A stretch of 64,000 nt of DNA. Origin: Tubulanus polymorphus. Lineage: Eukaryota > Animalia > Nemertea. Shown piece by piece: positions 1,765 through 62,701 of this stretch. A model generated the notes under the pieces. That model saw nothing but the letters and a program-made list of their open reading frames with translations, was not told where the DNA came from and did no database searches. A program made the position numbers and the translations under genes. The DNA is taken from contig NC_134029.1 in the NCBI RefSeq assembly GCF_964204645.1, positions 11,744,850-11,808,849 of the forward strand. The letters are read 5' to 3'. How positions within the stretch are numbered: position 1 is the stretch's first letter; the number at the start of each line of letters is the position of its first letter.

Positions 1765-1971
1765 AGTAATAGGGGTAATGGGCTTTCATATCAAAGGTTG
1801 AAAGGTTGAGGTTGATAAATTTTCCAAATGTTAAAATAATAATAATTTCTACTTGAATTAGGAGTGTACGCGACTAATTCAAGTAGAAATTGTTGTTATT
1901 TTAACATTTTGGAAAATTTCTCGGGCTCGACCTTTCGACCTTTGGTATGAAAGCCCATTACCCCTATTACT
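1765..1971. repeat. Terminal fold-back hairpin of Polinton copy A (~97-bp arms, 12-nt loop)
   Basis: AGTAATAGGGGTAATGGGCTTTCA...CTTGAATTAG gagtgtacgcga CTAATTCAAG...TGAAAGCCCATTACCCCTATTACT. Confidence 0.9.
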
Positions 1972-10800: not shown

Positions 10801-10872
10801 TTCTCACGTTTAAAATCAAACCCAAAACATATACTCGGCCCTACTGTTATATTCATTTATATAGTGAAAAAA

Positions 10873-11633: not shown

Positions 11634-11643
11634 TTTACATATT

Positions 11644-27817: not shown

Positions 27818-28654
27818 AAAACAGATTTAGACAGTTGATCATTTCATACCTTGTACATGTTTTAAAATACAATGTATCTTTACTTGAAGTGAATGAAACT
27901 TATAAGTGGTTATGATACATCAGCAGCAGAAAAGCACTAGGCTAGTGCATGATGCTGTTTTTTTTTCTTATAAATAACATGTTCCATTCTTTAAATTGTT
28001 AAATCCGTTTCTTTAAATTGTTTAATCGATAACGAATGCACTGAGTGAGAACCTGACTGGTGTCAGTGAAAGTGGTATATCACTCGGTCACATGCGAGCT
28101 CCTTAGTACACGCAGTATTACGGAGCGCAACGCTAGGGACTGGGTGAAGTCCTGAAATGAATCATTCGGGTTGCATCTAAAATACTAAAATCAAAATCGG
28201 AACGAAAAACACCACAGGGCGGTTAGAGGTATGTTCTTTAGACAGACCCTATACACACGTTGATGCCAACACCGGCTTCCACTTCAAAAGTTAAGAACAA
28301 AATATCAGAAATATTTGTGATCCGATTTACACCAAATAAACCTTTAAAGAAAGGTGTTTAGCATCGGATATAGTGCCGAAAATTCTAGATTGATACACTA
28401 CATAGTTTTTCAAGTGCGCATTTTTAGTGAAAACCAATTATGTTGATTGACAGCAGGCTCAGCTCCGCGCCTCATTTTATCGATGACATTAGGTGTAAAC
28501 AATAGCATTACCACGTGCGCAATGCAAACGGAAAACAGAATTTCTTTAAACAAACTTCTCTAATGGAATATCAATTTCTTTTCATAATTTGCCTTTTTTA
28601 TGTAATTTATAATTTATACATCAGACTTTGCTTCTTCGAACCTCAGTCCTCTTG

Positions 28655-31247
28655 TCTTTAATATGTAACTGTCGGTATCAAAATATAAGATTTATATATG
28701 CTTTTCTCCAAAATGAGGTTGTAATACGTTATAGTAAAATTCATACATTAATAATTTTGATATTTCTAAAACATAAATTGGTTTATTAAATTTCATACTT
28801 GTTCTCCTCATTTTAACTGCAGCTAAATTTTCATCAAATATTCTGTTACCTATGAACTTAGGATATGATTGTAAATGTCTTATCCTTTTACCATTACTAA
28901 CTAGCTCAATATCATTTCTATTTCTAATATTTTCACAAGTCTTACCATAGAATGCATTATTCATTAACTTGAAGATATCTTTCTCGAAATCAGTTTTAAC
29001 TTTAGTTCTCTGTTGGTATTAAAATGTATATATTTTTCTAACCATTTAGATTGACTGAATGAAATATATCTATGTACTTTTTTAGAATCATTCCTTGATT
29101 CAAATAGAATTTTAATATCCGATAATGTACTACATAATTATATTTATCTTCCTGAGTTACAATTTACTTTTCTGTATGAATATGATTTTCAGGTTTAATT
29201 CTTTTTGATAATTTGATAATTCTTCATGTGTTACAGTTTTATGTTCGGGACAGTATGCTAGATTTCTAGATTTAAATTTAATGTTTTCAGGGTATTCCAA
29301 GTCTACAACAAAAAAGTAACCAGTATCTGAATCATCTGCAATATCTAGAATTCTTTTCTTCCAATCAAATTTATCATTATTTTCATGTTGTAAAACTTCA
29401 GTTATTTCAAATACCCCATAAGGTTGAGGTTCCATCATTGCCCAACCATATAGATTATTTGCATCTATATATAATAACTTATATCCAGGGTTATCATTTA
29501 CATTGAAATATCTATCGCCTAATACACCTGAAACTCCTCCTCTTATAGATTTTTCAAATGATAATAATTGATCTATATTCGTTAATAAATCCATTTTTAT
29601 ATCTGTAAATTTTAAACCACAGTCCCAAGTTTTAAACCTGGACTAGAATAACAATGACATGGATCAATATTGAAATATTTTAGATTTACATCTCTAAACC
29701 TTTCAAATATATCAGTTAATAATAATACATCTGACTTTAGGTATAAATCTACTAATTGTCCATGATTTATTATATTGAAATGATTCCAAATATCCAATGT
29801 TCTATTATGAACTTCATCTTTAACATATTCATTTTTTAATTCATCATAGAATTGTTCGTTTAATAATTCAGTTATATTAAAATCATTATGATTTTTATAA
29901 CATGAATATGAAATTGCTCCTTTATATCTCATTAATTGAAAATCATCATTATTTGGATAGTGTTGTTTTAATATTTCTAATTCATCATCAACTAATGATT
30001 TTTATAAATTATCTAACGAACTACTTAAAAATCTATATGAATCTAAAAATCCTAGACACCCAAATTGGAAAGATATATAATTCTCAGATGTTTTAGCTAA
30101 CATTCTAAATTTATAAGTTGGTATTTTAGCAACACCTTTTGATCTATTTGAATTTAATCTTTCTATTTCATTATTGATTTCTTCTATTTTATGACATTAG
30201 TTGCTTGATGAATAAATGAGCATCATACCCTGATAAATTATGAAATATAACTGGAACAAAGTTTATTTTTTTTAGCTTGTAAGTTACAATTCTCATGTGC
30301 TGCACCTCTAAGCTTTCCATTCAAATGATCATGGTCTTTTTTATCTTTAAAATTAAATAGTTTTTCGCAATAATAACATTTATCTGATAAATCAAATTCT
30401 TCTTTATCTTCTTCTGTCATTATAATTTCTATATTTGTATTTAATAGTGTACTAAATTTGATTTAATATTCAATTAATAAGTCACAAAAATGATTGATAA
30501 CATTTTCATTTCTATAATTATAATATTCACTTTCAATTAGTTCTGGATAATCAGATTTAATATATGACCCGAAAGCTGCAGCTGATTGATGAATCTTTTT
30601 GATAGTATTTGTTATTAGAGGATCTGAATAATCAATTACATCATTTTCATTAGAATTCAATTTCTTTCTTTTATGATATATTTCTTTTCTATCTTGATCA
30701 GTTAATTCTTTGTTTAATGATTCAAAATCTCCATATATTACAAATGGTACTTTATTCTTGTAAACATTGAATTCTAATACTTTATCCTTTTCATTTGGTA
30801 AAATCATTTTACAATAATCATGGTTATCACATAATTGTTTATGATTTAATACTGTTTATGATTTAATGTACTTTCATTGCTGAATCTATGTAAACATTTT
30901 CTACGTAGATATTTTTTATTGTGATTATTTTCTGTTCTAAAAAATAAATCGATTTGTTTTATCCACATATAATGATTCTCAAAATATAGTATATCTATAA
31001 CATCATTTGAATCATAATCTTTTGATAGGTATAAAGGCTCTAATGTAAAATGTTTTATATTGTTACCTTTTGTTTTAGGTAATTTGATTAAATCGAATAC
31101 ATTTATTTTTAGATTATTATCTCTTTCTATTTTTGGGATATTTTTAATTCTAACTGGATAATTATCTATCTTATAATTATTTTCAAATTGTTTATAATTT
31201 GTTAATCTATAAGTATGTTGATTATAATCTTCAACTGCATGTAAACC
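28655..31247 (-). pseudogene. polB: Protein-primed PolB, central and N-terminal fragments (copy B), heavily frameshifted
   Basis: MNNAFYGKT, YIDANNLYG, LYLKSDVLLL, DHDHLNGK.RGAAHENCN, VIYGDFES; colinear with ~58837-61410. Confidence 0.92.
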
Positions 31248-33221: not shown

Positions 33222-35028
33222 GGGTGTTCGAACTTCGCTGAATCGCTGAATCGCTGAAACGCTGATTATTATATTAATTTCGCTGAATCATTGAATTTAT
33301 TCTTAAATACCCTGAATCTATGTAAATCTTACATATTCTAAATACAATTATTATTTGATCGATTTAATGAGAAATTTCGTTACATTTTCGAAAAAAATCT
33401 AGTTACACGGACTACGGTAACGGACGTAGTATTCTGCGGACTGTGGTAACGGCCTTCGGCGATGGTCACCGGTACTACTTATACCATAGAATAGAAACTG
33501 ATACAGGTACATGTACAACCGTGGCGTTCGAGCGGTGAGAACCATTTTCTCTGTGAAGAAAGGGCAAAAGTCGTATCGCCGATCGGTAGTGTTACATGTG
33601 ATAAATTCAACAGAGGAATTCCCATTAAAACAACAACTGTTTAATCGAAAATGATCACATATGATTCTGCGTGAGTTTTAACCTTACAGCTTTGTAGGGA
33701 TTCGCTCTGTGGACCCCCATTCGGCTTATTCACCTGAGAATATTACCACGCATAAATTTAATAACGGGTACTTCAAAAGTACGAAACTACGAAATTAAGA
33801 AATATGCAACGAAATTACGAAATGAAAAAATTTTGTAATTTTTTGCGCTAAAGCAGCAGATTCGTGGAGCTGGCTTCAACATGCGCACCCGGTCTAGTGT
33901 GGCAGGGTTCCGTGCCGCGACTGAATTTAGCGATGCCATCAGGGAGAATGATCTGCGCATGCTCATATACAACTGGAAGGTAGCGATTAATAAATTACGG
34001 GTTAGAGAACGAAGTGTGCCTTAAAATATATCCTGCAGTGTTTAGGCTAAAAAATTGATACCTCGTTTCTCCTCTGCTGAGGAGCTTAAAAGTCTGGATT
34101 TTGCAAGGGATGCGGATTCGAAAAGAAAATTCACGGCCGGAATTTTTTTCAAATTGCTCGTCACTACGCTGTTAAGCGGTAAAAAGATCGTAATGTAGTC
34201 CATGTGTAGGGCCTATCATTTCACTATGCTTTACCGCGTCTGAGTTTCGTGGAAATGGCGCAGCGTATTCATTATTTGTTTTTGAGAACATCCTACAAGT
34301 TTCTACTAATTGTAGACGTTCTTAAAACCCTCCAGTTTAAGAAAATAAATTCTTGAATATGGTACTTTCAAAAGATCATTTACATGCACCGCCGAGATTT
34401 TTACAGTCCTGTAGCGTTATAACGAGCTATGACCATAGTATGGGCGTGTGTTTGAAATGTGACCATTTCGTTTCGTATTTCGGTTCGTATTTAAGCACTA
34501 CTGGCAAAAAAATTTCCATTTCGTAATTTCGTAGTTTCGTAATTTCGCTCCATACTTCGTAATTTCGTTTCATATTTCGTAATTTCGTAGTTTCGTACTT
34601 TAGCAGGACCCTTTAATAACTCATACGTGTAGTACCAAGGCCGAACCAAATTTCCTAAACCTTCCAGCAAAAAAGACAGAAATACTAAAAAACCTATGAA
34701 TACAGGTACTTTATTTTGATAACATAAAATTTTATTTGACGTACCAGCAGATATAAAATTGTTGAATGCTGGATGTTATAAAAATAAACTTTCATTTTGG
34801 TCCTGGCGCGCGTCCGCAAAGCGTTTTCATCTTGCTCTAAAAGCGTACTATCGTCAAACATGGCACCACTTATATGATTTATTATTTATTATACATTGTT
34901 CGTTTTACAATTGCTTGAAAAAATCAGTAAAATTAAAAGAAATGATGATTAACATTAAATTCAGCGTTTCAGTAATTCAGCGGTTCAGCGATTCAGCGAT
35001 TCAGTGATTGAGCGAAGTTCGAACACCC
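33222..35028. mobile_element. MULE-type MITE with TCGCTGAA subterminal repeats
   Basis: TIR GGGTGTTCGAACTTCGCT; 9-bp TSD GTTATTTTT / GCTATTTTT. Confidence 0.8.
33766..34611. mobile_element. Nested MULE-type MITE with TACGAAA repeats
   Basis: Inverted ends GGGTACTT...AAAGTACGAAACTACGAAATT; perfect 9-bp TSD TTTAATAAC. Confidence 0.8.
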
Positions 35029-36949: not shown

Positions 36950-37769
36950 ATTTGCTAAGCGGGCGATTTGTGATCCCATTTGCGGTTTTAACCGTCGCAC
37001 TTCTCACAATATTATCGGAACCAGCATGCAACTCCGTGATGACTCCCAAGTTTCCACTTTAACCGTGGAACATTTTCACTTTTCCCATTTATAATAACAA
37101 CATCACCTTTGTGAGCATTAGCAAAGGGCTTTAGACCGGTAAGAGACCTTTCCCGCAAAGACACAAGATATTCGTTAGCCCATCGCTCTCTGAATTCCTT
37201 TATAACAGACGCGCACAACTTCGCCCGTTCCGACCCTGGAGAATCTCGACAGCCTCACTATAGCCTCTGTCCGTTAAAGGGATACCCGCAATACTCCCCA
37301 ACGCCTCACCACTCAATTGGCATTTCAGGTAGTTGAATTTGCAGACACTTGCGGCAACAAAAGAGTCCCAAAACGACTGCCATTCTAATACTGCACCAGA
37401 AAACTTCGGCAAAGTTTTTTTCGGCAAATGTACTTTTAAGCTGTCACTAGGTGCAGGATTTATAGGTTCAGTTGGCGGGGTTGGCTTATCTAAATGTTTT
37501 AATATAGTTTTCTCGTGTCTACGTGCAAGAATTCTCTGGCATGAAATCTCTGTTTTGGCCTCTTCAAAAAACTTTTGATGCTCAGTATCGTCGAGCTTTC
37601 CGTAAATTATTTCATTCAGGCCTTCAATTGTCTTAATGCGAGAACAAACTTCCATAAGAGTTTCGTGTTCCAATTCATACTCATCTTTAGCTAAATGTTC
37701 ATCAATTGCGGTAAAAGATACCTTTATAAGTCCTCTATGCGCGTTCCTACTTCGTCGGTCCTTATCCAT
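36950..37769 (-). pseudogene. Internally deleted Bel/Pao retrotransposon: gag fragment joined to integrase C-terminal region
   Basis: LPKFSGAVLEWQSFWDSF...KFNYLKCQLSGEAL (DUF1759-like) directly followed by FRERWANEYLVSLRER...GDVVII...PRLKWKLG (DUF5641-like). Confidence 0.8.
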
Positions 37770-37783
37770 CGTGAGTCTCTATA

Positions 37784-38188
37784 AGTAATAGGGGTAATGG
37801 GCTTTCAGATCAAAGGTCGAACGGTCGAGCTCATTAAAAAACAAAACATTAAAAGTAATTTAAAACTATAATATATTTTCATAACCGTGTGTATTTTATA
37901 TTATAACTAAATATTTATTCTAAGATATCAATAATTTAAAAAGCATATTGTATTAAATCAATTGGTCGCTCCACTTCGCTACCGCTCCGCTCCGCGACCA
38001 ATTGATTTATTTACAATACACAAATTCATATAATCAAATATATTCAAATGATAATAATTATTCTATTATTCAACTGAAATACACACGGTTATGAAAATAT
38101 ATTATAGTTTTAAATTACTTTTAATATTTGTTTTTAATGAACTCGACCATTCAACCTTTAAACCTGAAAGCCAATTACCCCTATTACT
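37784..38188. repeat. Left terminal fold-back hairpin (405 bp) of copy C
   Basis: ~112-bp outer arms AGTAATAGGGG...CCGTGTGTATTT / AAATACACACGG...CCCCTATTACT; inner 15-bp stem AAATCAATTGGTCGC / GCGACCAATTGATTT around a GC-rich loop. Confidence 0.9.
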
Positions 38189-38278
38189 CTTAAAATATTC
38201 ATGTAAATGAATAACATTTAAATTGACAGATTATTCAATATAAAAGTGTAAGCTCTTATAGAATAGATATATAAATAG

Positions 38279-38890
38279 TTATTTTATAAATTTATATTCA
38301 TATGGAAATTGTAGTCTCAGTAATAATTTTGAACCTTTATTATTCTTTAATTTATTCATATATTCATCATGTAATTCAGTAGGTATAATTTGATTTTCTT
38401 CCAATGATTGTTGCATAGATTTTTTATCTTTGTTATAAAATAAAGCTAAAAATCTTATATTCTCCCTAAAGTCTTTAACAATTGAATTATATTTTTGATT
38501 TAAAACCCATGTTGTTATCCCATAATGTCTCCCAGAGAAAGCTAAATAACATAACTCACTTTCTCTCACTTTTGAATCGTGTAAATTTGCGCAATCATCT
38601 ATAATGAATAATGTATTTGATCCTTTATAAGTATCAATTGCTATTTTAATACAATTATCTAAATTTTCTTTTTCTGTTTTAGGATCTAATATAATAAACT
38701 TTTTCATCTCAACTATATCTCTATTATATGTTTTATTCATTTCATAAGTGGGGCAGAATAATATTATATTATCAAAATGATTCTTATAAATAGTTTCTAA
38801 CAAATCTAATATGAAATGTGTTTTACCACAGTTTGTTACTCCAGTAACTAACATATTATGCGGTTCAAATATAAATAAATCTTTATTCAT
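38279..38890 (-). CDS. A32/FtsK-HerA-family DNA packaging ATPase
   Basis: Walker A GVTNCGKT, Walker B FIIDD, GRHYGI motif, RENI. Confidence 0.92.
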   Translation of the reverse strand: MNKDLFIFEPHNMLVTGVTNCGKTHFILDLLETIYKNHFDNIILFCPTYEMNKTYNRDIVEMKKFIILDPKTEKENLDNCIKIAIDTYKGSNTLFIIDDCANLHDSKVRESELCYLAFSGRHYGITTWVLNQKYNSIVKDFRENIRFLALFYNKDKKSMQQSLEENQIIPTELHDEYMNKLKNNKGSKLLLRLQFPYEYKFIK

Positions 38891-39994
38891 TTATTCTTTT
38901 AATTTTACTAGATAAAATCCATTCATTAAATTTATCATCGTATCCTTTATATTTCACCAAAGAATATTTTTTTCCTTTAAGAGTTTTTGTTTTCAATACT
39001 TTTTCTATTATGTATTCTATTTCATCTGGATTTGGTAGAAGTGATAATTCTTGTTCATAGAAATAACCTAATATTTCTTCATCATTTAGATCTTCTAGTT
39101 TATAAACAAAAGGTTTAGTTAAAATTATCTTTTTAATCTTGAATATTTCTTCTGTAAAATTAGGGGTATAACCTTTATAAAATGTTTTTCTATATTTAGA
39201 TATTCTTACGTGTTGTCCAATTTTAAATTTGGTTCACCGAAATCATGTGTAACAAACGCTCCATATAAATTATTCCAAACTATTTCCGAATTATCTTCTT
39301 TTCTAGCTTGTATAGGTTTCATATTTATAGAACTATGTTTAGAATTATTATAACCTTTCACTGAATCATCTAACACATCGATATATTTATATGTTTCATT
39401 ATCAGTAAAATATTTCTACATTCTAGTTTTCAATGTTTTATTAAATCTTTCTATAATAGATGCTTTTTTATCTGAGTGTGTTGAAAAATATTCTACATCG
39501 TTATCAGATAATAGTTTTTAAAAATGTTTGTTATAAAATTCCTTACCTTCATCAAATTGTATCTTATCTGGAATAGCTTCTTTAAATATTGATTTAAAAG
39601 CATTTGTAACTTCTATTCCAGTTTTATTTTTGATTGGAATTGACCATGCGTATCTACTGAATATGTCTATAACATTCAGTATCCAGAAATATCCTTTGTT
39701 GTGTTCTTCTAAGTTCTTCATGTCAATTAAATCTGCTTGCCATTGTTGATCGATATATGAAACCATAACTTTTCTTGTTAAATAAGTTTTATCCATTTTC
39801 TTGTGGATTTGATATGTTGGTTGATTTTGTAACCATGATTTCAATTCACTATATTTTATATCACCGTGTGGGTGCCGCACGGCACCATTTTCATTATCAG
39901 ATTTAATTTTATTCCATAATTCTGAAATACTAGAATATGATACTTCACTTTCTGGGTTATAATATAAATCTCTTAAATATTGTTCTTTTTTCAT
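38883..39994 (-). pseudogene. Retroviral-like (rve) integrase with C-terminal chromodomain, frameshifted
   Basis: WQADLIDM, IDIFSRYAW, IQFDEGKEF; downstream KASIIERFNKTLK and YIIEKVLK...KGYDDKFNEW. Confidence 0.9.
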
Positions 39995-40000
39995 CTTATT

Positions 40001-40964: not shown

Positions 40965-42123
40965 TTATATTACAGAAATTTAATAAGAAAAATATAATAA
41001 GTATTCTTCAAATGATACTAGTATCTCTTTAGATTAATACTAGCTTAGTTAAAGGTAAAGAATTTTAGTATTAGTTATTGTTTTTTTAGTATTTTTTTAT
41101 TTGTGATATAAAGTATTCTTTTGAAAAGAAAATATTAAAAAAACAATAACTAATACTAGCTAGTTGAAGATATGTAATTTTAAATACTTTTTATTTAAAT
41201 TAGGATTTAGATTATCTCACTACTATTGTTTATCTATTAGGAGCAGTAATTATAACTGTCCAGATAAGTCATTTCGGATTCTTGATCTCATCTAAATCCT
41301 AAAACTGAAAATAAATTCAAAGAAACGACTGGTGGAAATACTATTTTATAAACACACATATATTTTATTCTACAATCATTATCGATTTCCACATTCCAAG
41401 CCGCTCCTGAGAGGAGCGGTAAGGTATGCGTGGAATGCAGGAATCAATAAAATACAATACAACATCTGTCACTGTGTGTCATTAACAACAGCTTAATGAC
41501 GCAATTGAAATTCCGGCAAACGTAATGCATTGAAAGCCTATACAGTATGGCTAAACTGCTACAGTCTCATGAGTTGAAATATCCATTATTTCTGATTCCA
41601 CATCCATCTATCTTCACTTTCTTGATTCAATAGCCTTCATTTTGTTATCTAAAAGATAAATATCTAACGTAGAATAAAACTAACTTGAAGTTGTAGTTGT
41701 AAAATATTAATTACAGCACTTAAACATAACCATTTGTGGAGCATCTTACCAGGATAAGTTTTACATGTTTAACGTTTCCCAACGCCTTAATAACAACAAA
41801 AACAGTACTTACATTTATAACTGTAAACTCCTAAAATTGTGTTTATAGAGAGAATATCCTATACGTTCCTATGCTTATGTGCTGCGCGTTTATAACTGCC
41901 AGTTATTCACTAGCTAAACACTGTCTGGTGCAACAGATGTTCCTTCCTTTGTAATATAATTGATTAATCCTGTTCAACTGAAATAGCACATTCGATCAAT
42001 ATTCAAATGAGATACACCCTATTCAACTGAATATAACGTGCGACAGATGCTTTTGTAAACAACCTAATACAATTACATACAGGCGGTTTGACATAGATCG
42101 AGAGTAACCGGTTTTCTAAGCGT

Positions 42124-42771
42124 TTAACATTCAACGTATTTTTCATTATGTGTTGAGTTCCATAATTCAACAAATGTCTTTGCTTTATCCAGTTGATCTA
42201 AATATAACTGTATATCTAGTTTATTAGATTTAATTATGTTTTCCTTCTTTTCTAAAGGTCTTTTCCAGCTCCATATTAGCTTCTTATTGTATTCATCATT
42301 CATGTCAAATTTAGAAATCGGCAACACATGATCAATATGAAAGTATTCACCATAATTATCTATATTCATTTTATCATCGAATTGAAATATAATCCATGAT
42401 TTGAGAAATTCATCAGAACAACCCAATAGATTAGATAGTGTTTCTGAATGTGTTTCTTTGTTGAATAATTGTGTTAATCTAGATCTTAAGCATTGTTTCA
42501 GTCTAAAATTAAGATCTGTTTGATATCTTTCTCTCATATATTCTGCCATATAATAATTATAATGTTCTATATTATCTTCTCGATATTGTTTGGTATATAG
42601 TTTAGTACAAGTTTTACAGCAATATTGAAAACCATCTTTGCTAATCTTACGCTTATTAAATTCTGTTATAGCTAATTTATCTAATTCACACTTAGAACAC
42701 TTCTTGTAGTATATGTTTATGACACCAGTGTTATTTGTAATATTTTTAGTTTGTGGTTGTTCTGGTTCCAT
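42124..42771 (-). CDS. Zinc-ribbon + HNH-type endonuclease (giant-virus/phage-like)
   Basis: KKCSKC...DG.QYCCKTC; LLGCS; NYGEYFHIDHVLP; RPL...ENIIKSNK. Confidence 0.75.
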   Translation of the reverse strand: MEPEQPQTKNITNNTGVINIYYKKCSKCELDKLAITEFNKRKISKDGFQYCCKTCTKLYTKQYREDNIEHYNYYMAEYMRERYQTDLNFRLKQCLRSRLTQLFNKETHSETLSNLLGCSDEFLKSWIIFQFDDKMNIDNYGEYFHIDHVLPISKFDMNDEYNKKLIWSWKRPLEKKENIIKSNKLDIQLYLDQLDKAKTFVELWNSTHNEKYVEC

Positions 42772-42793
42772 TTATTATACATATTTTTTTACT

Positions 42794-42920
42794 AAATTGA
42801 TTTTAGAAGTTATTCATTTATATGTTATTCATGAATATATATGAATTATTTCAATAAAACTTTACTAACACTTTTAATGTTTAAAAATCTAACTCATACA
42901 AATATAAATATTGAAATATG
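42794..42920 (-). promoter_or_regulatory. Upstream module of the HNH gene, duplicated upstream of polB (62331-62440)
   Basis: Shared AAATTGATTTTAGAAGTT and ACTTTACTAACACTTTTAATGTTTAAAAATCTAACTCATACAAATAT blocks. Confidence 0.65.
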
Positions 42921-42937
42921 TTTAAAATATACCTATG

Positions 42938-43280
42938 TATTAGATACCCTATTAGATACCATATTAGATACCCTAATACCTGATACCCTATTAGATACCT
43001 TAATTACTTAAAACCCCCTTTTTAAAAATAAATATTATTTATACAATTTTCAACCAATTTATTTTTATTTTTTCAACTAATATATGAATAAGTTTGAAAA
43101 TAATAAAGGTTATTTATTATTACTGAGGTTTCAATATAAATTTAAAAAAGAAATATAATTTAAGGTATTTTCAAATAATACGTATTAGATATGTATTAGA
43201 TATGTATTAAATACGTATTACATACCTTAATACTTAAAACCCCCTTTTTTATTTACTATTATTTTATACAATTTTCAACC
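42938..43280. repeat. Two intergenic arrays of TATTAGATAC-type units, each followed by ACTTAAAACCCCCTTTTT
   Basis: Arrays at ~42938-43055 and ~43178-43280. Confidence 0.7.
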
Positions 43281-44101: not shown

Positions 44102-44690
44102 TGTAGCGGGCTTATTTTCCTAACCGTTTGGTTTTACTCTATTTTACTTTACGTCCGGTACTATGTCCGGTCCGGGACCGCAGTTTAGTGTGGAGTATAC
44201 GGGCGCGTGTTTAGAAAGTTCGTGACCTGCCCAATATATTAGTTTTACCCTCAGTTCTTGAGGCTTCACTGTCGGTGAGTGCATTCTCTATTGTTTGTTT
44301 AGGATGTATAGGCTATATTGACGTATGTTATTTCTGTGTAAATCTCCTGAGAGAGTTGTATCACTGGTTTTCGAGATTGGCACTCGCATGCCAGAGGCTG
44401 ATACCCTTAAGGTTATAGGACGTTTCCTGGTCTTACTAGACTTGATTATTCGTGAGTTGATTACTTAGTATTTTTCTTAGTGTGTTTTCATTTCTTGTCT
44501 TTTTAGTCAATCGTAGTTTACTGTTTGACGTCGGAGCTTGTGTGATGTCTATATGCAATGTAAAGAATGTGATCCGAGATTTGTACTCCTGAGTCTGAGA
44601 AGATTAAATAAACAAAAGCAGTAATAACACGCATATGACGGAAGCTAATTAGTGGTTTTATTAACTTAGTCAGAACTGAAGGATATTACA
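44102..44690 (+). repeat. 5' LTR
   Basis: TGTAGCGGG...GGATATTACA; about 7 mismatches to the 3' LTR by eye. Confidence 0.95.
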
Positions 44691-44860
44691 TTATTGACGA
44701 CAACGCCACCTAAGATGTCTGATACTGATGTATCAACAAAAGAACTGCAGAATGGATTGTCAGTGGAGGTGATGCCGATGGCTCAGAAACCGGTAAGATT
44801 GCCGACTTAAAGAAATCGGCCCTTGACGACCAGGATGATAGGCAGTCCATCCAGTCGTCC

Positions 44861-47800
44861 GTGAAAACACATGACTCTACCAAATCCAAGGCTAAGCTCG
44901 AAATAAAGCTCAAGGCACTGAAGAGACAACAAGAACTCGAGACGCGAAAGTTGCAGTTAGAGCAGGAGCAAGCCCAGCTTGACCTTCTCACCCAAATGGA
45001 ATTGGCAAGTTTAAGCGATGACGGAGATGAACGGGAAGTAAACCCGAAAGCTCCCCCATTTGAGCCAGATAAGTGCCATACACCTACGCCCCCAGGTTCG
45101 TCTACGTCGCAGGATGTCATCGCCATTGAAGGCCTGATCAACGAACTTAGAAAGCCCAAGGTGGACATCGCTAAGTTTGCCGGAGACCCGCTTCGGTATC
45201 CGAAATTCGTTCGGGAATTCACAGCGAAGGTCGTGAATTACACTAAATCTAATGCTGAGAATCTTAGTTATTTGGAGCAATATACCACCGGTGAGGCGAA
45301 CGAGGTGGTGTCGGGATTTACGTTCATGGATCCTGAGGCCGGTTACTTGGCAGCTATGACTGCGTTAAAGGAGAGATATGGTGACTCTGAGGTCATTGCG
45401 CATGCATTTATTGATAAAGCGCTTTCATGGCCCGCGATTAAACCAGACCGGCCTCGAGAATTAGATAAATTCGCGATGTTCCTTACTGAATGCAAATACG
45501 CCGTCGAGTCGCTGCAAGAAGTTAGAATTCTCGAGTACTCAGAAAATCTGAAAGGGTTAGTTTCAAAACTGCCGCGATTTCTACACGATCGATGGAGGAC
45601 GATGGTCTATTCGAACAAAGAGCGTGGTCGTTCGACAACATTTACTCAGTTAGTCGATTTCGTGCGTCGAGAGGCTCGTAAGAGTAACGACCCAGTGTAC
45701 GGTCACCAAGTATTAGATGGTGAACAAGGTAGCAAGTCTTTCGATAAGAGATACATGAAATACGATAAAGGCAAACGTGCCTATGCTACTTGTAGTACGA
45801 CGTCGGTCGGTGTCGGTAGCAGCAGCGACCCTCCCTCCCAGTGTAAACCTAAGTCCGGTTATGATAAACCATGTTTACATTGCGGTGATGAAAGGCATAA
45901 CCTACTAAATTGTGCGACGTTCGCTAACATGTCGGATTCCCAGAAAACGGAATCAATTAAGATCGCTAGACTCTGTTTCGGTTGTCTCCGTCCAAGACAC
46001 ATGAAAAAGTTCTGTAAACAACCGTTGAAATGTTTGAAATGCAATAGAAATCACGCAACGTTCATGCATTTCGAGAGACCTCTACCGCGAACAACGGCGT
46101 CTGATGAGAAAATTGGTCTATCCACGACTCGGGAGGAAACAACGAATGTAGCTTCGATAATCGGACACACCAACGATGGTTACGATTCGGGAGTTCTCGC
46201 GATTGTCCCGGTGAAAGTTGGGCTACCCAACAGCCCATACAAGGTCAGTACCTATGCGTTTTATGATGGAGGTAGTTCTGGAACACACGCAACAGAACTC
46301 ATAAAGCGAAAACTTGGAGCTACGGGACCGAAGGGCAAAATTAAATTCGACACGGTTTTCGCGCGTCATGAAGGGGATAGCTATAAAATCGGCACGCTAG
46401 TCGTCTCCGACTGGAATGAAAAAGACACGGTAAAACTGAGTAAAGTGTCTACAATGAAAGACATTCGCGTTTCAAGGTCATTTATCCCGCGTCAAGAAGA
46501 TATCGTGAAATGGCCGCACTTAGCAGACCTGGATATTCCTGACTTAGACATGGAGATCGGTCTCATTATAGGTTACAACAGTGTTGATGCATATCGGCCG
46601 ATAGAGTTGCGTCCTGGTTCCTCAGGAACACCGTTCGCTACCAAGACTAAACTTGGTTGGGTGGTTTGGGGCCTTATTAAGGACCCAGACCCACATTCGA
46701 GACCTATGTGTAACTTTATCGCTAGTTCCACGACTACGGAGAACCTAGAAAACTTAGTTGCTACGGCTATGAAATTCGACTTCCCCGAACGGCAATCCGA
46801 GGAGAAACAAGAAATGTCGGTCTTAGACAAACAGTTCATGAGTTCGATCGAAAGTTCGCTGAAGCTTAAGGACGGACACTACGAGATCGGGCTCCCACTC
46901 CGTGAAAACTGTAAATTACCGAACAATCGAAACATGGCGTTAAAGAGGCTGATGGGTGTCAAGTCGAAATTTCGAGCAGATGGAAATTACCATGATCAGT
47001 ATAAATTATTCGTGAGCGATATGATTAGGTTAGGCTACGCCGAAGTGGTTCCGGTCGAACTCAGCAATGACGAAAATGTGTGGTACTTGCCACACCACGG
47101 CGTGTACCACCCTCAAAAACCTAATAAGGTGCGCGTAGTATTCGACGCCTCAGCGAAATTTCAGGGGATTGCTTTGAATGATGTACTCTTGCAAGGCCCA
47201 GATGTCACGAATTCGTTGATTGGAGTTCTTTATCGCTTCCGCGAAGGCCAGGTGGCGCTAAAGGCCGACATCGAGAAGATGTTTTTTCAGGTACGTGTTC
47301 CCGAAAACGACCGAGATTTCTTGAGATTCTTGTGGTTCGAAGACGGTGATATAGAGAAAGGAATCGTTTGCTTGCGCATGAAAGTCCATATGTTTGGCGC
47401 CGTCAGTTCGCCAGCGTGTGCGAACATCGCCTTACAGCGTACGGCTACAGATAATGCGGCTAAATTCAGTACTGAAATCGTCAAGTCGATAGCTCGAAAC
47501 TTTTATGTCGATGATTTTCTTAAATGCCCATTCAAAATCGCCGAATCCGAAGAATTAGCCGTCAGTACACAAAACCTTTGTAGGAAAGGTGGATTCAATC
47601 TTACGAAATGGTCATCGAACAAGAGCACTGCGTTAAATAGTATTCCCCCAGATGATCGGGTTGATGAAACTAAACAAGAGGACTCAGTCTTAGGGATGAA
47701 ATGGTCCATTGTTGATGATACATTGTCATTCATTGTCAATATGAAGAACAATCCTACTACGCGGAGTGCTGTCAACAACTAGTGCGACGTATGATCCGAT

Positions 47801-50025
47801 AGGGTTTATCGCAATACTGCCGGTAAAGCTGCTATTGCAGCAGCTGACTTGTCGGAAAGCTGATTGGGATGAATGTTTAAATGACACAGAGTTGATCGAA
47901 TGGAAGAACTGGCTCACTGCGATGGAAAATGTTGACAAAGTCCGGGTAACCCGCATCTTGCGTCCGTCAGGTACTGTTAACAACGAAATTATATCATGCG
48001 AAATTCACTGTTTTTCGGATGCGAGCGAAGTCGGATATGGGTCGTCGTTGTATGCTCGACTCGAAGATAGCGATGGAAATGTCCAGTGTTCGTTGATTCT
48101 TGGTAAATCCAGGGTTGCTCCATTGAAGCGACTGTCGATTCCGCGGTTGGAGCTCACTGCAGCGGCCATGTCGGTCCGGCTGTGTAATATGATGCTGCAG
48201 GAGATCGACTTAGAAGTCACCGATATGGTTTTCTGGACTGATAGTTCCATAGTCCTATGATACATTAAAAATGAATCGAGTAGGTTTAACACATTCGTTG
48301 CGAACCGTGTCTCGTGTATTCAGCGGAGTTCAGATGTAGACAAATGGCGTCATGTTAGGTCCGCTGAAAATCCGGCTGATTTGGCATCGCGTGGCATGAC
48401 TCTCGATGAATCATGTTTGAATCGATGGCTTCATGGCCCCGAGTTTCTGAGTAAACCGAAATCGGAGTGGCCAGACACACGCGTAGGCAATAACGTTTCG
48501 CTCGACGGTGATCCAGAAGTGAAGCGTGTTACAACGATCAACACTACGTTGGCTGTAGATCTGCCGGAAGACGAGCATCCAGTTGACTGAATCCTTAGAC
48601 GTCGGTCGCAGTGGTCTCGTGTTAAACGTATATTGGCATGGGTCCAGCTAGCGGTGAAAAAGTTCAAGCGTCAGTCCTTAGATAAGTTCGAGCTCATAAC
48701 CGCTGATTTAATCGCAGCTGAACTATTGATTATTTCGCATGTTCAAAAGCAAGACTTTCCCGAAGTCTACCGTCGCTTGGAGGAAGGTCACGAGTTAAAA
48801 AAGTAGTGTAATCTTAGGAAGTTAAACAAAGATGAGGGTGTTATTAGGGTTGGTGGCCGTCTTAGTTATGCCAGTCTTGCTTATGATCAGAAACATCAAA
48901 TCTTGCTAACGAGCAGATCCAGATTAGCTACAATACTGATCGAAGACGCGCATCGTAAAGTTGGTCATCTAGGTTGCGAGAGTATTCTAGCGTACCTCAG
49001 GACACGATACTGGATGACTCATAAGCGTAAATCAATCAAAAGTTTCCGAGGGAAGTGTATCGTGTGTATCACTTCTCATAGTCCGCCTGGCAATCAGAAA
49101 ATGGCGGACTTACCGATCGAGCGTGTCACGCCAGACAAACCGGCATTCGCAAACTCCGGTGCGGACTATTTCGGGCCGATCGAAATTAAAAGCGGTCGAA
49201 GCGTGGTGAAAAGGTACGGCGTGATATTCACCTGTTTGGCTAGTCGCGCAATTCACCTCGAAGTAGCGTACTCGCTTGATAGCGACTCGTGTATAAATGA
49301 TACCAGGCGATTCATGGCAAGACGGGGAAATGTGAAATCGATAAGTGGCTGCTGATCGCGAATTGAAGGAATCCATTAAAGGCTGGAACGCCTCAGTTAT
49401 TCATGATTCATTGCTTCAGGATGGCGTCGATTGGTCCTTCAACCCCCCTGCTGGTTCGCACTTCGGGGGTGTGTGGGAAAGGCTAATCCGTTCCGTCCGC
49501 AGAGTGTTGAGATCGTTGATGAAGGAGCAAACGACACGCTTGGATGACGAGTCGTTTCACACGCTCCTATGCGAAGTGGAGAGTATTCTAAATAATCGGC
49601 CGATCACGAGAAACTCGTCAGACCCCGCGGACATGGAAGTTTTGACCCCGAACCACGTGCTGTTATATAAACCTGGTCTATGTTTACCTCCAGGTTTGTT
49701 CGTTAAGACGGACATGTTCGTAAAACGCAGGTGGCGCCAGATTCAGTATTTAGCGGACATTTTTTGGAAGCGCTGGATAGCAGAGTACATTCCTACATTG
49801 CAAGTACGTCAAAAGTGGCTAACTCAAAATCGAAATGTAGCTGTCGGAGATATAGTTTTGGTAGCAGACAGTACACCAAGAAACTCGTGGGCAATGGCTA
49901 AGGTCATTGAGGTGCTTCCGGACAAATATGGAGCAGTACGCGTAGTTCGGATTAAAACTAAAACAAATGAGTTGATCCGTCCCATAGACAAGTTGGTTTT
50001 ATTACTGGAGGTCGATGAGGAATAG
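44861..50025 (+). pseudogene. gag-pol: Bel/Pao gag-pol polyprotein (gag, zinc knuckles, protease, RT, RNase H, integrase) with frameshifts and stops
   Basis: KFAGDP..Y..F, CFGCL...H...C, YLPHHGV, KVRVVFDAS, ADIEKMF, FYVDD, FSDASEVGYG, IPRLEL, DYFGP, GGVWERL, RRWRQIQ. Confidence 0.95.
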
Positions 50026-50686
50026 TGTGTAAACCATCCATATTTAAGTTTTGATTGTTTAAATTTTTGACAGATGTATGTATGCCTAGTTGGTACAGTG
50101 GTATTGTATTATGTTCTTATTCCCTCACTCAGGGTGAGATGGTTTTGCCGTTAAGGTGTGTTCTAATCTGTGATGCTGCTGTATCCATTTAGTTTAGTAA
50201 TAGTGGTTCATTTTGCAGCAGTGGTGTATAATTGCTAGTTGTTATTTTCTACTGAGTAGTTTGCGTAAATTGTATAGGATACCATTCTTAAAAGGAGTGC
50301 GTTAGTAGTACTATCTTCCTGTATTAAGTTTTAGGTTCATTTATGAGGATGCGAACTCATATGTCATAAGGGATAAGTTGAACTCAAATATTTACGGGTC
50401 TGGTGTTCTTATTGTGTAGATGCGAAATTAACTTCAGGTTCACATGAGTTGAGTAATTTTTCGTAAGATCGAATATTCAGGTTAATTCTGTTTTAAGTCC
50501 AGTCGTGTGTGAGTTGCTCTGATGTATTTAATTTGCTTAGGTGCATATTATTTTGGTAGATGTATGCATACATTGTATATGTTATTCTGTTATAAACTTT
50601 TTGTAAAGAGTTTGCACTTTACCTCAGAGGCCCTTTTTTAGTATTGTAATGTGGTGGAGAAATTGCAATGCAATTTCGGGGGCCGG

Positions 50687-51275
50687 TGTAGCGGGCTTAT
50701 TTTCCTAACCGTTTGGTTTTACTCTATTTTACTTTACGTCCGGTACGTTGTCCGGTCCGGGACCGCAGTTTAGTGTGGAGTGTGCGGGCGCGTGTTTAGA
50801 AAGTTCGTGACCTGCCCAATATATTAGTTTTACCCTCAGTTCTTGAGGCTTCACTGTCGGTGAGTGCATTCTCTATTGTTAGTTTAGGATGTATAGGCTA
50901 TATTGACGTATGTTATTTCTGTGTAAATCTCCTGAGAGAGTTGTATCACTGGTTTTCGAGATTGGCACTCGCATGCCAGAGGCTGATACCCTTAAGGTTA
51001 TAGGACGTTTCCTGGTCTTACTAGACTTGATTATTCGTGAGTTGATTACTTAGTATTTTTCTTAGTGTGTTTTCATTTCTTGTCTTTTTAGTCAATCGTA
51101 GTTTACTGTTTGACGTCGGAGCTTGTGTGATGTCTATATGCAATGTAAAGAATGTGATCTGAGATTTGTACTCCTGAGTCTGAGAAGATTAGATAAACAA
51201 AAGCAGTAATAACACGCATATGACGGAAGCTAATTAGTGGTTTTATTAACTTAGTCAGAACTGAAGGATATTACA
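50687..51275 (+). repeat. 3' LTR
   Basis: Direct repeat of 44102-44690. Confidence 0.95.
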
Positions 51276-51334: not shown

Positions 51335-52584
51335 TTAATTCATAACAATATCTAATTGTGAATTTACAATATTTAATTGCGCGTCAGATATAATATAAAT
51401 GTGCATTTTGAAATTTTTGATTCCTTTATTCTTTGTCATGAATAATTGTATTCCATCTTTAGTGTTCTGTAATTTTTTTCCAGAACCATGTAATGAATTA
51501 TCCTCTGTTGTTCTAAAATCTAACCATAATGCATATTTATTACCGGTATAATAATCAATTTGATTAATATTACAATTTTCAGATGATTTTACTTTTTCAT
51601 TCATAAAATGTTTTCTAATTTCTGGCCATTGATCAATCATTCTCATTCCTTGACAAAATATTTTATTTGCTATTCCTTCGATAGTTATTTCTACTTTTGT
51701 TATTTCAGGATTATAATAATTATCAACATTTATTGCGCCATTAGTATATGTTGCAATGGTAAAAAAAATATTAATATACCTTTAATAGATCTTCTTGGGA
51801 AGTTAATATTCTCATTAATAATTTCATCATTTGCATTAATAGTTACAGTTTTAAATTTATCAATATAATCATATAATAATGAAAATCCTTGATTGTATTG
51901 AGTTTGAATTATACTTGCAATATTTTCATCAGTTACTGTATCATATTCTAAACATATATTCGATAATTTATAACTCATATCTTTATTAACGCTAGATATT
52001 ACAATTTCATTTACAGGAGCAAATGTTATTTCGAATATAACGTCTTCTTGAATTGCGTATTTATATAAAGGTGCATTGTTATTTATCAATTCAAAGTCTA
52101 ATGGAATTTTATATTTGCTTCCATATATACTTTTTATCAATTTATCTACAGCATTAGTTAATATTGCATTATGCGCTTCTGATCTTAATTTATTTTGGTT
52201 TTCCGATTGAATGCCTTGAAATATCATATTATTTCTATTTTCTTTAGTTAACCATAAATCTTTATAATGCATAAATAAATTATAATCATCTAATGAGAAA
52301 ACTGTCTCTGGGCCAATCTTTATAGATAATTTTTTAATCAAATATCTTCCAACATTATCAACGACATAATTATTATCATTACCGATTACTTTTATATCGG
52401 CTGATAAATACATACTATTTGGAACATAAAAAGTATTTTGTGTTAATCTAGGAATTCTAACATATAAAGTTTCATCGGGATTAATATTTGAAGGATTATG
52501 AGTAATTATATGATGCGATCTTTCTGCTTTAATAGCATTAGATATTCTATGATTCTTAGAAGGATTGATATAACTCCCACTCAT
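51335..52584 (-). pseudogene. Major capsid protein (double jelly-roll, Polinton type), frameshifted
   Basis: ITHNPSNINPDETLYVRIP...YKLSNICLEYD...NINFPRRSIKGIL then YALWLDFRT...LHGSG...IISDAQLNI; size and position fit an MCP. Confidence 0.75.
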
Positions 52585-58327: not shown

Positions 58328-61300
58328 TTAACACGTTAGAATTCTTTTCATTATCTCGTTCTCTTTTGTTTCTTCTCTTTTAAATTTTAAGTATTCATCT
58401 AAATTACAACCATAAGCAACTGTATGAATTCCATCATCCAGAATATATCTTTTATCATCAAATGGGTTTAGACTAATCTTTTCAATTTCTTCAATAAACA
58501 TTTCATGATCTTCAGATCCTAAACATCTCATCTTATGTTTTCTAACTTCTTCATTGAATATACAATTGATGTAATCTTTGAAATGAATATTCTTTTCTAC
58601 TACACTTTTGGTTATTCCTTTTAACTTTTTAGCTTCATGTTCTTTAGTTTTATATGAATACATTTTAGATCTAATACCAATGAACTCTATCATTTCTTCA
58701 CCACCTAATTCATCTTTGAATTTACCAGGAACTTTTTTATTATCATTGCTAAACAATTCATGATTTTTAGGATAGTTAGTGAAATCAAAATGATGTTTTA
58801 ATGTTTTCAAATCATCTGTTATGTTATCAGTTTTTATCTTTAATATGTAAGAATCTGTATCAAAATATAGTATTTCTATATGTTTTTCTCCAAAAAGTGG
58901 TTGTAATACATTATAATAGAATTCATACATTAGTAATTTTGATAATTCTAAAACTGATGCGCCAACATAGATTGGTTTATTAAATTTCATTGATGTTCTT
59001 CTCATCTTAACTGCAGCTAAATTTTCATCAAATATTCTGTTACCATTGAACTTAGGATATTTTTGTAAATGTCTAATTCTTTTACCATTACTAACTAACT
59101 CAATATCATTTCTATTTCTAATATTTTCACAAGTCTTACCATAGAATGCATTATTCATTAACTTGAAGAAATCTTTTTCGAAATCAGTTTTAGCTTCAGT
59201 TCTCTGTTTGGTGTTAAAATCTATATATTTTTCTAACCACTTAGATTGGCTGAATGAAATATATCTATGTACTTTTTTTAGAACCATTCCTTGTTTTAGA
59301 TAAAACTTTAACATTCTATAATGTACTACATAATTATATTTATCTTCTTGAGTTACCATTAACTTTTCTGTATGAATATGATTTTCGGGTTTAATTCTTT
59401 TTTGGTAATTTGATAATTCTTCATGAGTTACAGTTTTATGTTCGGGACAGTAAGCTAGATTTCTAGATTTAAATTTAATATGTTCAGGATATTCCAAGTC
59501 TACAACAAAGAAGTAACCAGTATCTGAATCATCTGCAATATCTAGGATTCTTTTCTTCCAATCAAATTTATCATTATTTTCATTCTGTAAAACTTCACTT
59601 ATTTCAAATACTCCATAAGGTTGTGGTTCCATCATTGCCCAACCATATAGATTATTTGCATCTATATATAATAACTTATATCCAGGGTTATCATTTACAT
59701 TGAAATATCTATCCCCTAATACACCTGAAACTCCTCCTCTTATAGATTTTTCAAATAATGATAATTGATCTATATTTGTTAACAAATCCATTTTTATATC
59801 TGTAAATTTTAATCCACAATCCCATGTTAATCCTGGTGATGAATAATTATGACAAGGATCAATATTAAAATATTTTAGGTTTACATCTCTAAACCTTTCG
59901 AATATATCAGTTAATAATAATACATCTGATTTTAAATATAAATCTACTAATTGTCCATGATTTTCTATTTTGAAGTGATTCCAAATATTCAATGTTCTAT
60001 TATATACTTCATCTTTAACATATTCATTTTTTAATTCATCATAGAATTGTTCTTTCAATAATTCAGTTATGTTAAAATCATTATGTGATTTATAGAAAGA
60101 ATATGGAATTGCTCCTTTATATCTCATTAATTTAAAATCATCATTATTTGGATAGTGTTGTTTTAATATTTTTAATTCATCATCAACTAATGATTTTGAT
60201 AAGTTATCTAATGAACTATTTAAAAATCTATATGAATCTATAAATCTTAGACACCCAAATTGGAATGATATATAATTCTCAGATGTTTTAGCTAACATTC
60301 TTAATTTATAAGTTGTTATCTTTTGGTCTATTTGAATTTAATCGTTCTATTTCATTATTGATTTCTTCTATTTTATGACATAACTGTTTGATGAATAAAT
60401 GAGCATCATATCCTGATAAATTATGAAATATTACTGGTACAAAATTAATTTTCTTAGCTTGTAAGTTACAATTCTCATGTGCGGCGCCTCTAAACTTTCC
60501 GTTCAAATGATCATGGTCTCTTACTTTTTTATCTTTATAATTAAATATCTTTTCACAATAATAACATTTATCTGCAAACGCAAATGCTTCTTTATCTTCT
60601 TCTGTCATTATAATTTCTATATTTGTATTCAATAATTTACTAAATCTTATTTCATATTCAATTAATAAGTCACAAAAATGATTGATAACATTTTCATTTC
60701 TGTAATTATAATATTCACTTTCAATTAGTTCTGGATAATCAGATTTTATATATAACCCGAAAGCAGCAGCTGATTGATGAATCTTTTTAATAGTATTTGT
60801 TATTGGTGGTTCATCTGAAAAATCATTTTCATTAGGATTTAATTTCTTTCTTTTATAATATATTTCTTTTCTATCTTGATCAGTTAGTTCTTTATTCAAT
60901 GATTCAAAATCTCCATATATTACAAATGGTACTTTATTTTTGTAATCATATTTTTTGAATTCTAATATTTTATCTTTTTCATTTGGTAAAACTAATTTAC
61001 AATAATCATGATTTTCACATAATTGTTTATGATTTAATAATGTACTTTCATTACTGAATCTATGTAAACATTTTCTACAAAGATATATTTTATGGTGATC
61101 ACTTTCTGATTTAAAAAATAAATCGATTTGTTTAATCCACATATAATGATTCTCATAATATAGTATATCTATAACATCGTTTGAATCATAATCTTTTGAT
61201 AGATATAAAGGTTCTAATGTATAATGTTTTATATTGTTACCTTTTGTATTTGGTAATTTGATTAAATCAAATACATTTATCTTTATATTATTATCTCTTT

Positions 61301-62308
61301 CTATTTTTGGGATGTTTTTAATTATAACAGGATACTTATCTATCATATAATTATTTTCAAATGGTTTATAATGAGTTAATCTACAAATATTATAAGTTGC
61401 AGGATGTAAACAACTTATTATAGCCCATAGAAAACATTTATCATCTTCATTTTGTACATTTATAACAGCATTAGTTTTAAATGGTAGTTTAATATAACCC
61501 GATGCTTCAATATCTGGTTCTTTATAATATGATACATTATTTTCATCAATTGGTTTTGATTTAGTTAACTTATTATATTTTGTGTTATAAACATGTTAAG
61601 TCATAAATATTATTTCATCAAATATTAAACCAGATCCATCAAAACATTTCTCTTCTATTTTAGTTTTTACTTCATTATAACATTTATCTAATTTATCATC
61701 TATATGTTGTTTTGAAATAATATGTTGTGAATGAGAATTTATATTATATATTGGTTTATCTTCAGATTTTATAAACTTTACTTTAACTGATATACTAATT
61801 TTAGGATATTCAACATCTGTAATTATTTTCATTATTTCTTTCATATTTTCTAAATGTTTTTTATTTTCTTCTAATGTTTTTCCTTTATGAAATTTAAACT
61901 CGGTAGATCTTTTTTATCTAATGAATTAATATAATTTCTTACATGTTCCATGTATGGTCTTTTATTGTTTAATTTATTTTTTATGCTTTTAATTGTCTTC
62001 TGTTTCTTATCATTATCTTTATCAAAATAATCTTCACCTAAAATATCATTATTCTTATTTCTAATATGACTTTTAGATTTTAAATGTTCTTTATAATATC
62101 TTTTATCACTGAATGATTGATAACATGTATCACATTTGTATGTTTCTTTTTCATTCTTTAATTCATCTAATTTAGTTTCTAATATATCATCTTCATATTC
62201 TAATTTCAATTTATTCTGTAAATGTGTTTTAGTTTTATTGTGTCTTGCTTTTTGGGATTTATCTATATTGATATTACATGTTGGACATTAGTACTTATTT
62301 GCTTCCAT
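58328..62308 (-). pseudogene. polB: Protein-primed family B DNA polymerase with N-terminal zinc fingers, OTU-like segment and endonuclease VII-like insertion; several stops/frameshifts
   Basis: YGDFES, FHNLSGYD, FIDSYRF, YIDANNLYG, KLMNNAFYGK, YFDTDS, KLKGI; CYYC...VRDHDHLNGKFRGAAHENCN; NEDDKCFLWA. Confidence 0.95.
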
Positions 62309-62454
62309 TTTAATACTAAATTTTTTTTTTAAATTGATTTTAGAAGTTCAATGATTTATATCATGTACTATTTCAATCACACTTTACTAACACTTTTAAT
62401 GTTTAAAAATCTAACTCATACAAATATGAATATTGAAATAATGTTGTAAATATA

Positions 62455-62701
62455 TACTTTTATATTGAATAATCTGTCAATTTAAATGTTATTCATTTAC
62501 ATGAATATTTTAAGAGTAATAGGGGTAATGGGCTTTCAGGTTAAAGGTTGAATGGTCGAGTTCATTAAAAACAAATATTAAAAGTAATTTAAAACTATAA
62601 TATATTCTCATAACCGTGTGTATTTCAGTTGAATAATAGAATAATTATTATTATTCGAATATATTTGATTATATGAATTTGTGTATTGTAAATAAATCAA
62701 T
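62455..62701. repeat. Right TIR of copy C, truncated at the inner hairpin stem
   Basis: Reverse complement of 38001-38247; ends ...AAATAAATCAAT. Confidence 0.9.

Follow-up and report, generated by a model that had tools for sequence, protein, structure and literature searches.

The left end of a Polinton in the nemertean Tubulanus polymorphus is a long hairpin, a genuine and well-supported variant in the structure of Polinton ends whose strand signature lends itself to testing. It was found in a window of 64,000 nucleotides (the whole stretch of DNA analysed here), in which the element itself is a dead Polinton copy with many relatives in the genome. The hairpin end amounts to a defined cis element with a built-in prediction, namely folding of one strand, a flush end and a single orientation. 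For Polinton excision, replication and the hand-over of the ends to the integrase, the portions of the published accounts consulted offer models only.

The hairpin end and the Polinton that carries it

The imperfect terminal palindrome opens with AGTAATAGGGG at 37784 and closes with the complementary CCCCTATTACT at 38188 (Table 1). Its arms, 37784-37896 and 38077-38188, are identical in 103 of 114 aligned columns and differ by eight substitutions and three gap columns. At the apex a perfect stem (37954-37969 / 37994-38009) closes the loop, and the intervening stretch from arm to apical stem is a palindrome in decay, with 51 of 85 columns matching. DNA folding gave -111.1 kcal/mol (z -19.5) for the + strand and -119.4 kcal/mol (z -23.0) for the - strand, and none of 100 shuffled sequences was as stable on either strand. 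In the predicted fold the - strand ends in an ACT-3' that is paired flush with the inner AGT, giving the 3'-terminal hairpin with a paired 3' end by which rolling-hairpin systems are recognized. The preliminary description had proposed a 405-bp fold-back with the AGT motif on both arms, and a flush ACT-3' on the strand that ends 3' at the terminus; arm alignment and folding bear out both. Its inner stem-loop is also present, with a 16-bp stem and a 24-nt loop in place of the 15 bp given there. Together with a further 62 bp the palindrome makes up a terminal inverted repeat (TIR) of ~467 bp, and TTTAAG directly precedes the inner AGT in all three copies in the window.

Table 1. Features of the window, by position and strand
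Feature	Positions	Strand	Remarks
Family B hairpin, end of second Polinton-derived element	1765..1971	+	207 bp; + strand (3' end = terminus) folds better
Host flank, BEL/Pao gag-like ORF	37200..37769	-	DUF1759 E 2.1e-10; Polinton 14 bp upstream of its start codon
Imperfect terminal palindrome	37784..38188	-	405 bp, flush with left terminus; - strand (3' end = terminus) folds better
Outer arm	37784..37896	+	113 bp; begins with terminal AGTAAT motif; element-host junction 37783/37784
Apical stem and loop	37954..38009	.	16-bp perfect stem; 24-nt loop of CGCTC-like repeats
Inner arm	38077..38188	-	112 bp; second, outward-pointing AGT box; T at outer-arm C positions
Inner non-palindromic part of TIR	38189..38250	.	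Completes ~467-bp TIR
Packaging ATPase (A32-like)	38279..38890	-	Pfam Pox_A32 PF04665 E 1.6e-11; reads toward hairpin
Retroviral-like integrase, in pieces	38886..40000	-	Pfam rve PF00665 E 1.3e-7
215-aa ORF, possibly HNH-like nuclease	42124..42771	-	Lead only
BEL/Pao LTR retrotransposon inside Polinton	44102..51275	+	589-bp LTRs 98.8% alike, 5-bp target duplication
Major capsid protein gene, two frames	51335..52584	-	73% to intact metagenomic homolog
Protein-primed PolB (pPolB) gene	58328..62308	-	Stops and frameshifts; TP-like and OTU-like N-terminal region; endonuclease VII-like domain within
Right TIR remnant	62453..62701	+	Inner segment, inner arm 62515-62625, part of middle; outer arm lost

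The genes to the right of the hairpin all lie on the - strand and comprise an A32-like ATPase, a broken RVE integrase, possibly an HNH-like ORF, a capsid gene and a broken pPolB. With pPolB, a terminal-protein (TP)-like domain, RVE integrase, packaging ATPase, capsid and terminal inverted repeats, the element carries the hallmarks of Polintons/Mavericks. The pPolB gene, although broken in this copy, matched DNA_pol_B_2 (PF03175, E 9.1e-14) above the cut-off, and the best integrase piece (32.3 bits) fell 0.3 bits under the curated cut-off of 32.6. A low-confidence model of the capsid homolog (pLDDT 40) had its best match to double jelly-roll (DJR) capsids (E 1.8e-7), and each match listed was a DJR capsid or scaffold protein. 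The 215-aa ORF was without a Pfam or NCBIfam match; in Atlas its three best matches listed (0.95) were unnamed viral clusters, and the nearest named clusters among the matches listed were mostly HNH-type (0.86-0.88). The Pfam scan of 19 ORFs gave no match to an Ulp1/adenain maturation protease and no HUH Rep/NS1 nickase, and seven element proteins had no match in NCBIfam.

The N-terminal region of pPolB was modelled with X at one stop (mean pLDDT 73.5) and forms a small alpha/beta domain whose helix 2 and last strand flank a Gly-Ser-Gly loop with its Ser. In Foldseek its top PDB matches were Y-family polymerases (~113 columns, prob 1.0, E 3e-3, above 0.001), and its best viral matches were adintovirus/MELD entries (E 1e-13 and 2e-11). 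A like topology and similarity to Y-family polymerases have been described for the Polinton terminal-protein domain, in the part of that study available (bioRxiv 10.1101/2024.03.18.585575). Since the modelled fold fits this published domain, pPolB likely keeps a terminal-protein-like N-terminal domain, and the protein-priming machinery would therefore be retained. Behind it lies a D-x-x-C motif with a downstream His, which we take to be OTU-like; this region gave one weak match named OTU (E 7e-3). A PDB sequence search with the pPolB N-terminus returned zinc-finger and chance matches only.

A short-read run of another sample and study under the same species label (X5, 150-nt Illumina, of which ~12 in 100 was read) was used to examine the terminus; the contigs of Logan runs X1-X3 were too broken up to cover the whole hairpin. 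Depth rose 92-fold at 37784, from 32 at 37758-37775 to 2,941 at 37794-37811, and loose-ended reads stopped before 37784 (1,518) and 37783 (256; 1,767 and 271 in another count). The flanks of the loose-ended reads at 37784 were mixed (agreement 0.33-0.37), as expected if many copies end there in different host sites. Position 37784 is the true left terminus of the Polinton, and the earlier identification of the hairpin as a Polinton terminus thus holds for the family as a whole. No break in depth was seen over the arms, middle or apex, nor at the inner ACT (1,562 then 1,619). The depth of the hairpin (37850-38149) was 2.5 times that of the ATPase side (38250-38899), approximately the value for two hairpin-bearing TIRs per copy, and the outer half of the hairpin was no shallower than the inner (1,780 vs 1,102). 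From this ratio and the depth of the outer half, typical copies likely have the whole hairpin in both of their TIRs, and the truncated right end of the window copy is likely a private lesion. The right TIR remnant is 97.6% identical over 250 bp to 38001-38250; it is broken inside the apical stem, so that no TSD can be read in this copy.

Strand polarity of the arm mismatches in two end families

The window holds a second, shorter end (family B, Table 1). On both arms its first ~47 bp are the same as in the 405-bp hairpin and its inner flank is homologous, whereas the interior is different; the same flush AGT...ACT design is found at its terminus. Palindromy and flush geometry thus persist while the hairpin interior turns over (405 vs 207 bp). 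In X5, 449-533 loose-ended reads at 38223 match the inner flank of family B by eye, and further loose-end classes at 37840 and 38161 point to additional end families. Within window positions 1-1971, the family B end is joined to a mosaic in which Polinton pieces (matching 42688-42802, 42125-42222 and 62220-62361) are mixed with unrelated sequence. It may be a non-autonomous derivative, its other end lying upstream, outside the window.

For both families the arms were compared reading each from AGT, all within the one window. An outer C faces an inner T in five of eight substitutions in the 405-bp hairpin and in seven of nine in the 207-bp hairpin; the remaining five are transversions, and no reverse transition was found. 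All 12 transitions form G.T pairs on the 3'-terminal strand (the one that ends 3' at the terminus) and A.C on its complement (binomial p 2.4e-4 for 12:0; 4.9e-4 for 11:0, with one shared site counted once). Replacing the left inner arm by the right-hand one gave 13:1 (p 9e-4). Of 29 C sites 12 had changed, against none of 40 G sites (Fisher p 5.9e-6), while three paralogous pairs of Polinton fragments in the window showed symmetric transitions. As DNA the 3'-terminal strand is the more stable by 8.3 (405-bp) and 11.6 kcal/mol (207-bp), and the gap is larger as RNA, ~30 kcal/mol. Folding energies and arm mismatches agree, in both families, on the strand that had been named before as the one that folds.

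The polarity suggests selection for folding of the 3'-terminal strand; this reading is drawn from the arm sequences, and a strand-specific mutation bias of some kind, or selection at the RNA level, may account for the pattern instead. CpG decay as its sole cause was rejected, with seven of the 12 changes lying outside CpG and no G-to-A change. In integron attC hairpins, likewise imperfect palindromes, the same G.T bias favours folding of one strand and marks the working strand, according to the portion of PMC5027507 consulted. These are bacterial tyrosine-recombinase sites, and the analogy extends to strand choice only.

Possible roles of the folded end in replication

We tentatively favour a role of the 3'-strand fold-back in protein priming, as duplex origin, end protector and copy-back template. 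The functional steps that we infer would begin once strand displacement in replication, or excision, has left the terminal strand single. The final 113 nt of this strand would fold onto the inner AGT arm, replacing locally the long-range panhandle of adenovirus type, and TP-pPolB, possibly the integrase too, would bind the fold-back duplex, with synthesis beginning on the terminal template. The fold-back would thereby spare a panhandle spanning the ~18 kb between the ends (24.9 kb without the 7.2-kb insertion). The predicted energies put a perfect panhandle (-133 kcal/mol) ahead of the fold-back duplex (-100 kcal/mol), which would leave its local nature as the only advantage of the fold-back. 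It would also shield the 3' end, and the inner AGT copy could serve to restore a 3' end short of a few bases in a Tap-like manner, as in the fold-back telomeres of Streptomyces. If the folded 3' end were extended into the genome, this would be a side reaction outside the normal cycle.

The closest working analogy for this favoured role is the Streptomyces telomere (Tpg/Tap), where, in the excerpts of PMC5449611 consulted, TP priming is combined with fold-back repair templated by a foldable 3' strand. Its proteins are unrelated, its 13-nt terminal palindrome is one among several short ones, and replication starts from an internal origin (same source). In vertebrate Mavericks the (AGT)2 repeat is thought to allow jumping-back, according to the part of PMC8097293 consulted; the end found here, AGTAAT, is imperfect, unlike (AGT)2, and a back-up from the inner copy would therefore be useful. 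Rebuilding of the whole tip from the inner arm in every cycle was rejected, since the arms are ~90% alike whereas the two TIRs are 97.6% alike.

An unlikely alternative, though the strongest of the rivals, is self-priming with resolution in one orientation. The folded 3'-OH would be extended inward to give a hairpin-closed duplex, and the dimer bridge would be resolved asymmetrically; arm mismatches would mark the arm to cut, and TP priming would act at the open end. In favour of such a cycle, the geometry is exact, with ACT-3' flush with the inner AGT in both families, the conserved TTTAAG before the inner AGT could be a cut site, and integrated copies may be a filtered sample of the free forms. 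For a parvoviral left end the flip form only was reported, a result questioned by its own authors in the section of PMC1185569 consulted. The same model has been proposed for protist virophages and PLVs in a July 2026 preprint, where, in the text available, the palindromes go mainly with non-pPolB elements (bioRxiv 10.64898/2026.07.28.741278). The element also carries endonuclease VII-like and putative HNH-like domains, and the preliminary description had suggested either of them as a possible resolvase. The Endonuclease_7 match (E 2e-5, residues 247-296 of a pPolB piece) lies within the pPolB gene and is an insertion of the kind read as homing endonucleases, which have been described in Polinton pPolBs (Krupovic et al., bioRxiv 10.1101/2024.03.18.585575, in the portion consulted); it is thus weak evidence for a resolvase. 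The predominance of non-pPolB elements among the palindrome carriers of the preprint, the lack of an HUH/Rep nickase among the 19 ORFs, the retained TP-like domain and the rarity of possible bridge joints (7 and 9 reads among the rows listed) also speak against self-priming.

A hybrid cycle, in which an element-encoded nuclease would resolve the bridge asymmetrically at TTTAAG-AGT, with G.T mismatches marking the cut arm and an intact TP polymerase at work, we consider likewise unlikely. If true, it would combine adenovirus-type and parvovirus-type replication in animal Polintons. It could also mark a step on the way to the hairpin telomeres of pox- and asfarviruses, in which the free genome has a covalently closed hairpin end.

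It is also rather improbable that the palindromes are neutral relics of occasional copy-back at the ends, carried without function. A flush end follows automatically from copy-back of a 3' end, palindromy in the middle of the 405-bp hairpin is down to ~60%, and accidental annealing is offered as an alternative in the available text of the preprint (bioRxiv 10.64898/2026.07.28.741278). However, a neutral relic decaying in double-stranded DNA should show A.C and G.T in equal number, against the 12:0 observed and the 40 of 40 G sites unchanged, and decay of the middle has spared the distal 113 bp and the apical 16 bp.

Less probable again is an RNA-level structure, whereby a hairpin derived from the end is kept as a fold on an outward transcript, for termination or small RNAs. 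The ATPase and integrase genes do point at the hairpin, the favoured left-end strand is the ATPase sense strand, and the strand difference of ~30 kcal/mol as RNA exceeds the 8-12 as DNA. This reading leaves the flush terminal base of both families unexplained, and no Rfam family reached the threshold (one match, E 0.13, 26 bits vs 70). ARAGORN found no tRNA gene.

Classical rolling-hairpin replication, in which the palindrome is inverted in each round, is highly improbable for this element. In AAV hairpin transfer, self-priming is followed by a nick at the inner junction, which inverts the whole palindrome; about half of the host junctions would then be expected on inner-arm alleles, ending at 38188. 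No row of loose ends behind 38188 was present among the six X5 rows listed (159 more rows exist; the smallest listed has 256 reads), which bounds the share of whole-hairpin flips to <12.6% of junction reads (256 vs 1,774), provided that the rows listed are the best supported. The copies thus lie mostly in one orientation, as judged from X5 junction reads of integrated copies; family B lies beyond the reach of this count, and one isomer could be selected by the integrase. Depth, moreover, does not drop at the inner ACT (1,562 then 1,619). In favour of hairpin transfer are the flush 3' hairpin at the terminus and a few opposite-strand joints at arm-equivalent places (18 reads, 9+9, among the rows listed). 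The rolling-hairpin-like priming suggested at the outset is therefore supported in part only: hairpin transfer is not borne out, given a flip share below ~13% and the even depth. Parvovirus termini share a 3'-terminal imperfect hairpin whose paired end could prime, as described in the section of PMC1185569 consulted; unlike parvoviruses, the Tubulanus Polinton shows no Rep/NS1 nickase in the 19 ORFs scanned and no 50:50 flip-flop, and it has its own protein-primed polymerase. The result constrains the hairpin-priming idea put forward for protist viruses, as simple hairpin transfer misfits the integrated copies of this pPolB element.

That the hairpin is an assembly fold-back, or an independent MITE landed at the Polinton end, is scarcely credible although its 405 bp open with AGT and close with ACT in the style of a small element: to the limit of 150-nt reads, depth, junctions and flanks rule out both, given that the arms disagree in 11 columns, mostly in ways common to the right TIR 24 kb away, that short-read depth in a separate sample is unbroken across the hairpin, that the 6 bp flanking it differ between its two sides, and that reads run on through 38188 rather than ending there.

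Relatives of the hairpin end and other sequences of the window

Terminal palindromes within TIRs have been reported for virophage subtypes 1, 2, 5 and 6 and PLV subtype 4 of Halocafeteria seosinensis, with hairpin priming as the proposed use (bioRxiv 10.64898/2026.07.28.741278, in the text available). As in Tubulanus, these palindromes lie in TIRs beside the insertion site of elements with an RVE integrase. They differ in size (52 nt in the drawn example, against 207-405 bp), in host (a protist) and in replicases that are mainly non-pPolB, against a pPolB with a TP-like domain. Strand polarity and the absence of a 50:50 flip-flop characterize the Tubulanus Polinton, and no test of strand bias or isomers was found in the available Halocafeteria text.

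Vertebrate Mavericks and adintoviruses share pPolB, RVE integrase, A32 ATPase, a capsid gene and AGT...ACT ends with the element studied here, whose TIR of 467 bp falls inside their published range of 46-1,447 bp (PMC8097293, PMC8502044, in the portions consulted). They differ in the end motif, (AGT)2 against AGTAAT, in which the first triplet fits and the second is off by one base, (AG)3 being the other vertebrate Maverick form; no protease gene was recognised here. The terms 'palindrom' and 'hairpin' are absent from the main texts of these two surveys of animal elements (PMC8097293, PMC8502044). In a literature search with thin coverage of subscription papers, no animal pPolB Polinton was found for which long flush terminal hairpins had been reported, and the parts of PMC11296320, 10.64898/2026.10.13.758929 and PMC10680173 consulted hold nothing on hairpin ends of such elements.

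In metagenomic data, 20 ATPase loci were examined and none extended to a terminus. L004, L005, L007, L008 and L009 have palindromes behind the ATPase, which were rejected as support, being AT-rich and, where ORFs were listed (L004, L005, L008), intergenic. The 23-nt end motif had no match in viral_contigs, its 18-nt version none in 23 loci, and ATPase and capsid queries retrieved no viral_contigs loci; the aligned pPolB N-terminus yielded no pattern fit for searching. Among three IMG/VR pPolB loci, one (L003) has a hairpin upstream of pPolB, with 87-bp arms and no terminus shown. This hairpin (L003 4657-4840) contains a duplicated 51-bp inner unit and lies between divergent genes, adjoining an intact 1,253-aa pPolB; on either side its AGTAGT boxes face inward to the genome, the opposite polarity, and it is a lead only. 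In L004, a related Polinton, a 213-aa ORF (5871-6512) resembles a deoxynucleoside kinase by eye, with a P-loop motif.

The window as a whole is a nest of Polintons and other transposons. Decayed Polinton fragments, 77-90% identical to the main copy and one of them inverted, occupy 3560-4590, 8416-12535 and 28652-31216, and a tandem array of a 31-bp unit (4546-5705, >1.1 kb) interrupts a Polinton fragment. Within the main copy, the start and upstream regions of the HNH-like ORF and of pPolB (42763-42941 vs 62300-62466) are 81% alike over 184 columns, a likeness that reads as a duplicated promoter or leader within the Polinton. AT-rich palindromes at 62762-62835 (74 bp, 97%) and 41066-41158 (~93 bp, 74%) are perhaps terminators; similar ones lie between convergent genes in the metagenomic Polintons L005 and L008. 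A young repeat in two copies 98.4% alike (23060-23951 and 63109-64000) is found beside the broken right end, and other elements bounded by inverted repeats lie at 5794-6941, 12932-16392, 27445-28247 and 33222-35028.
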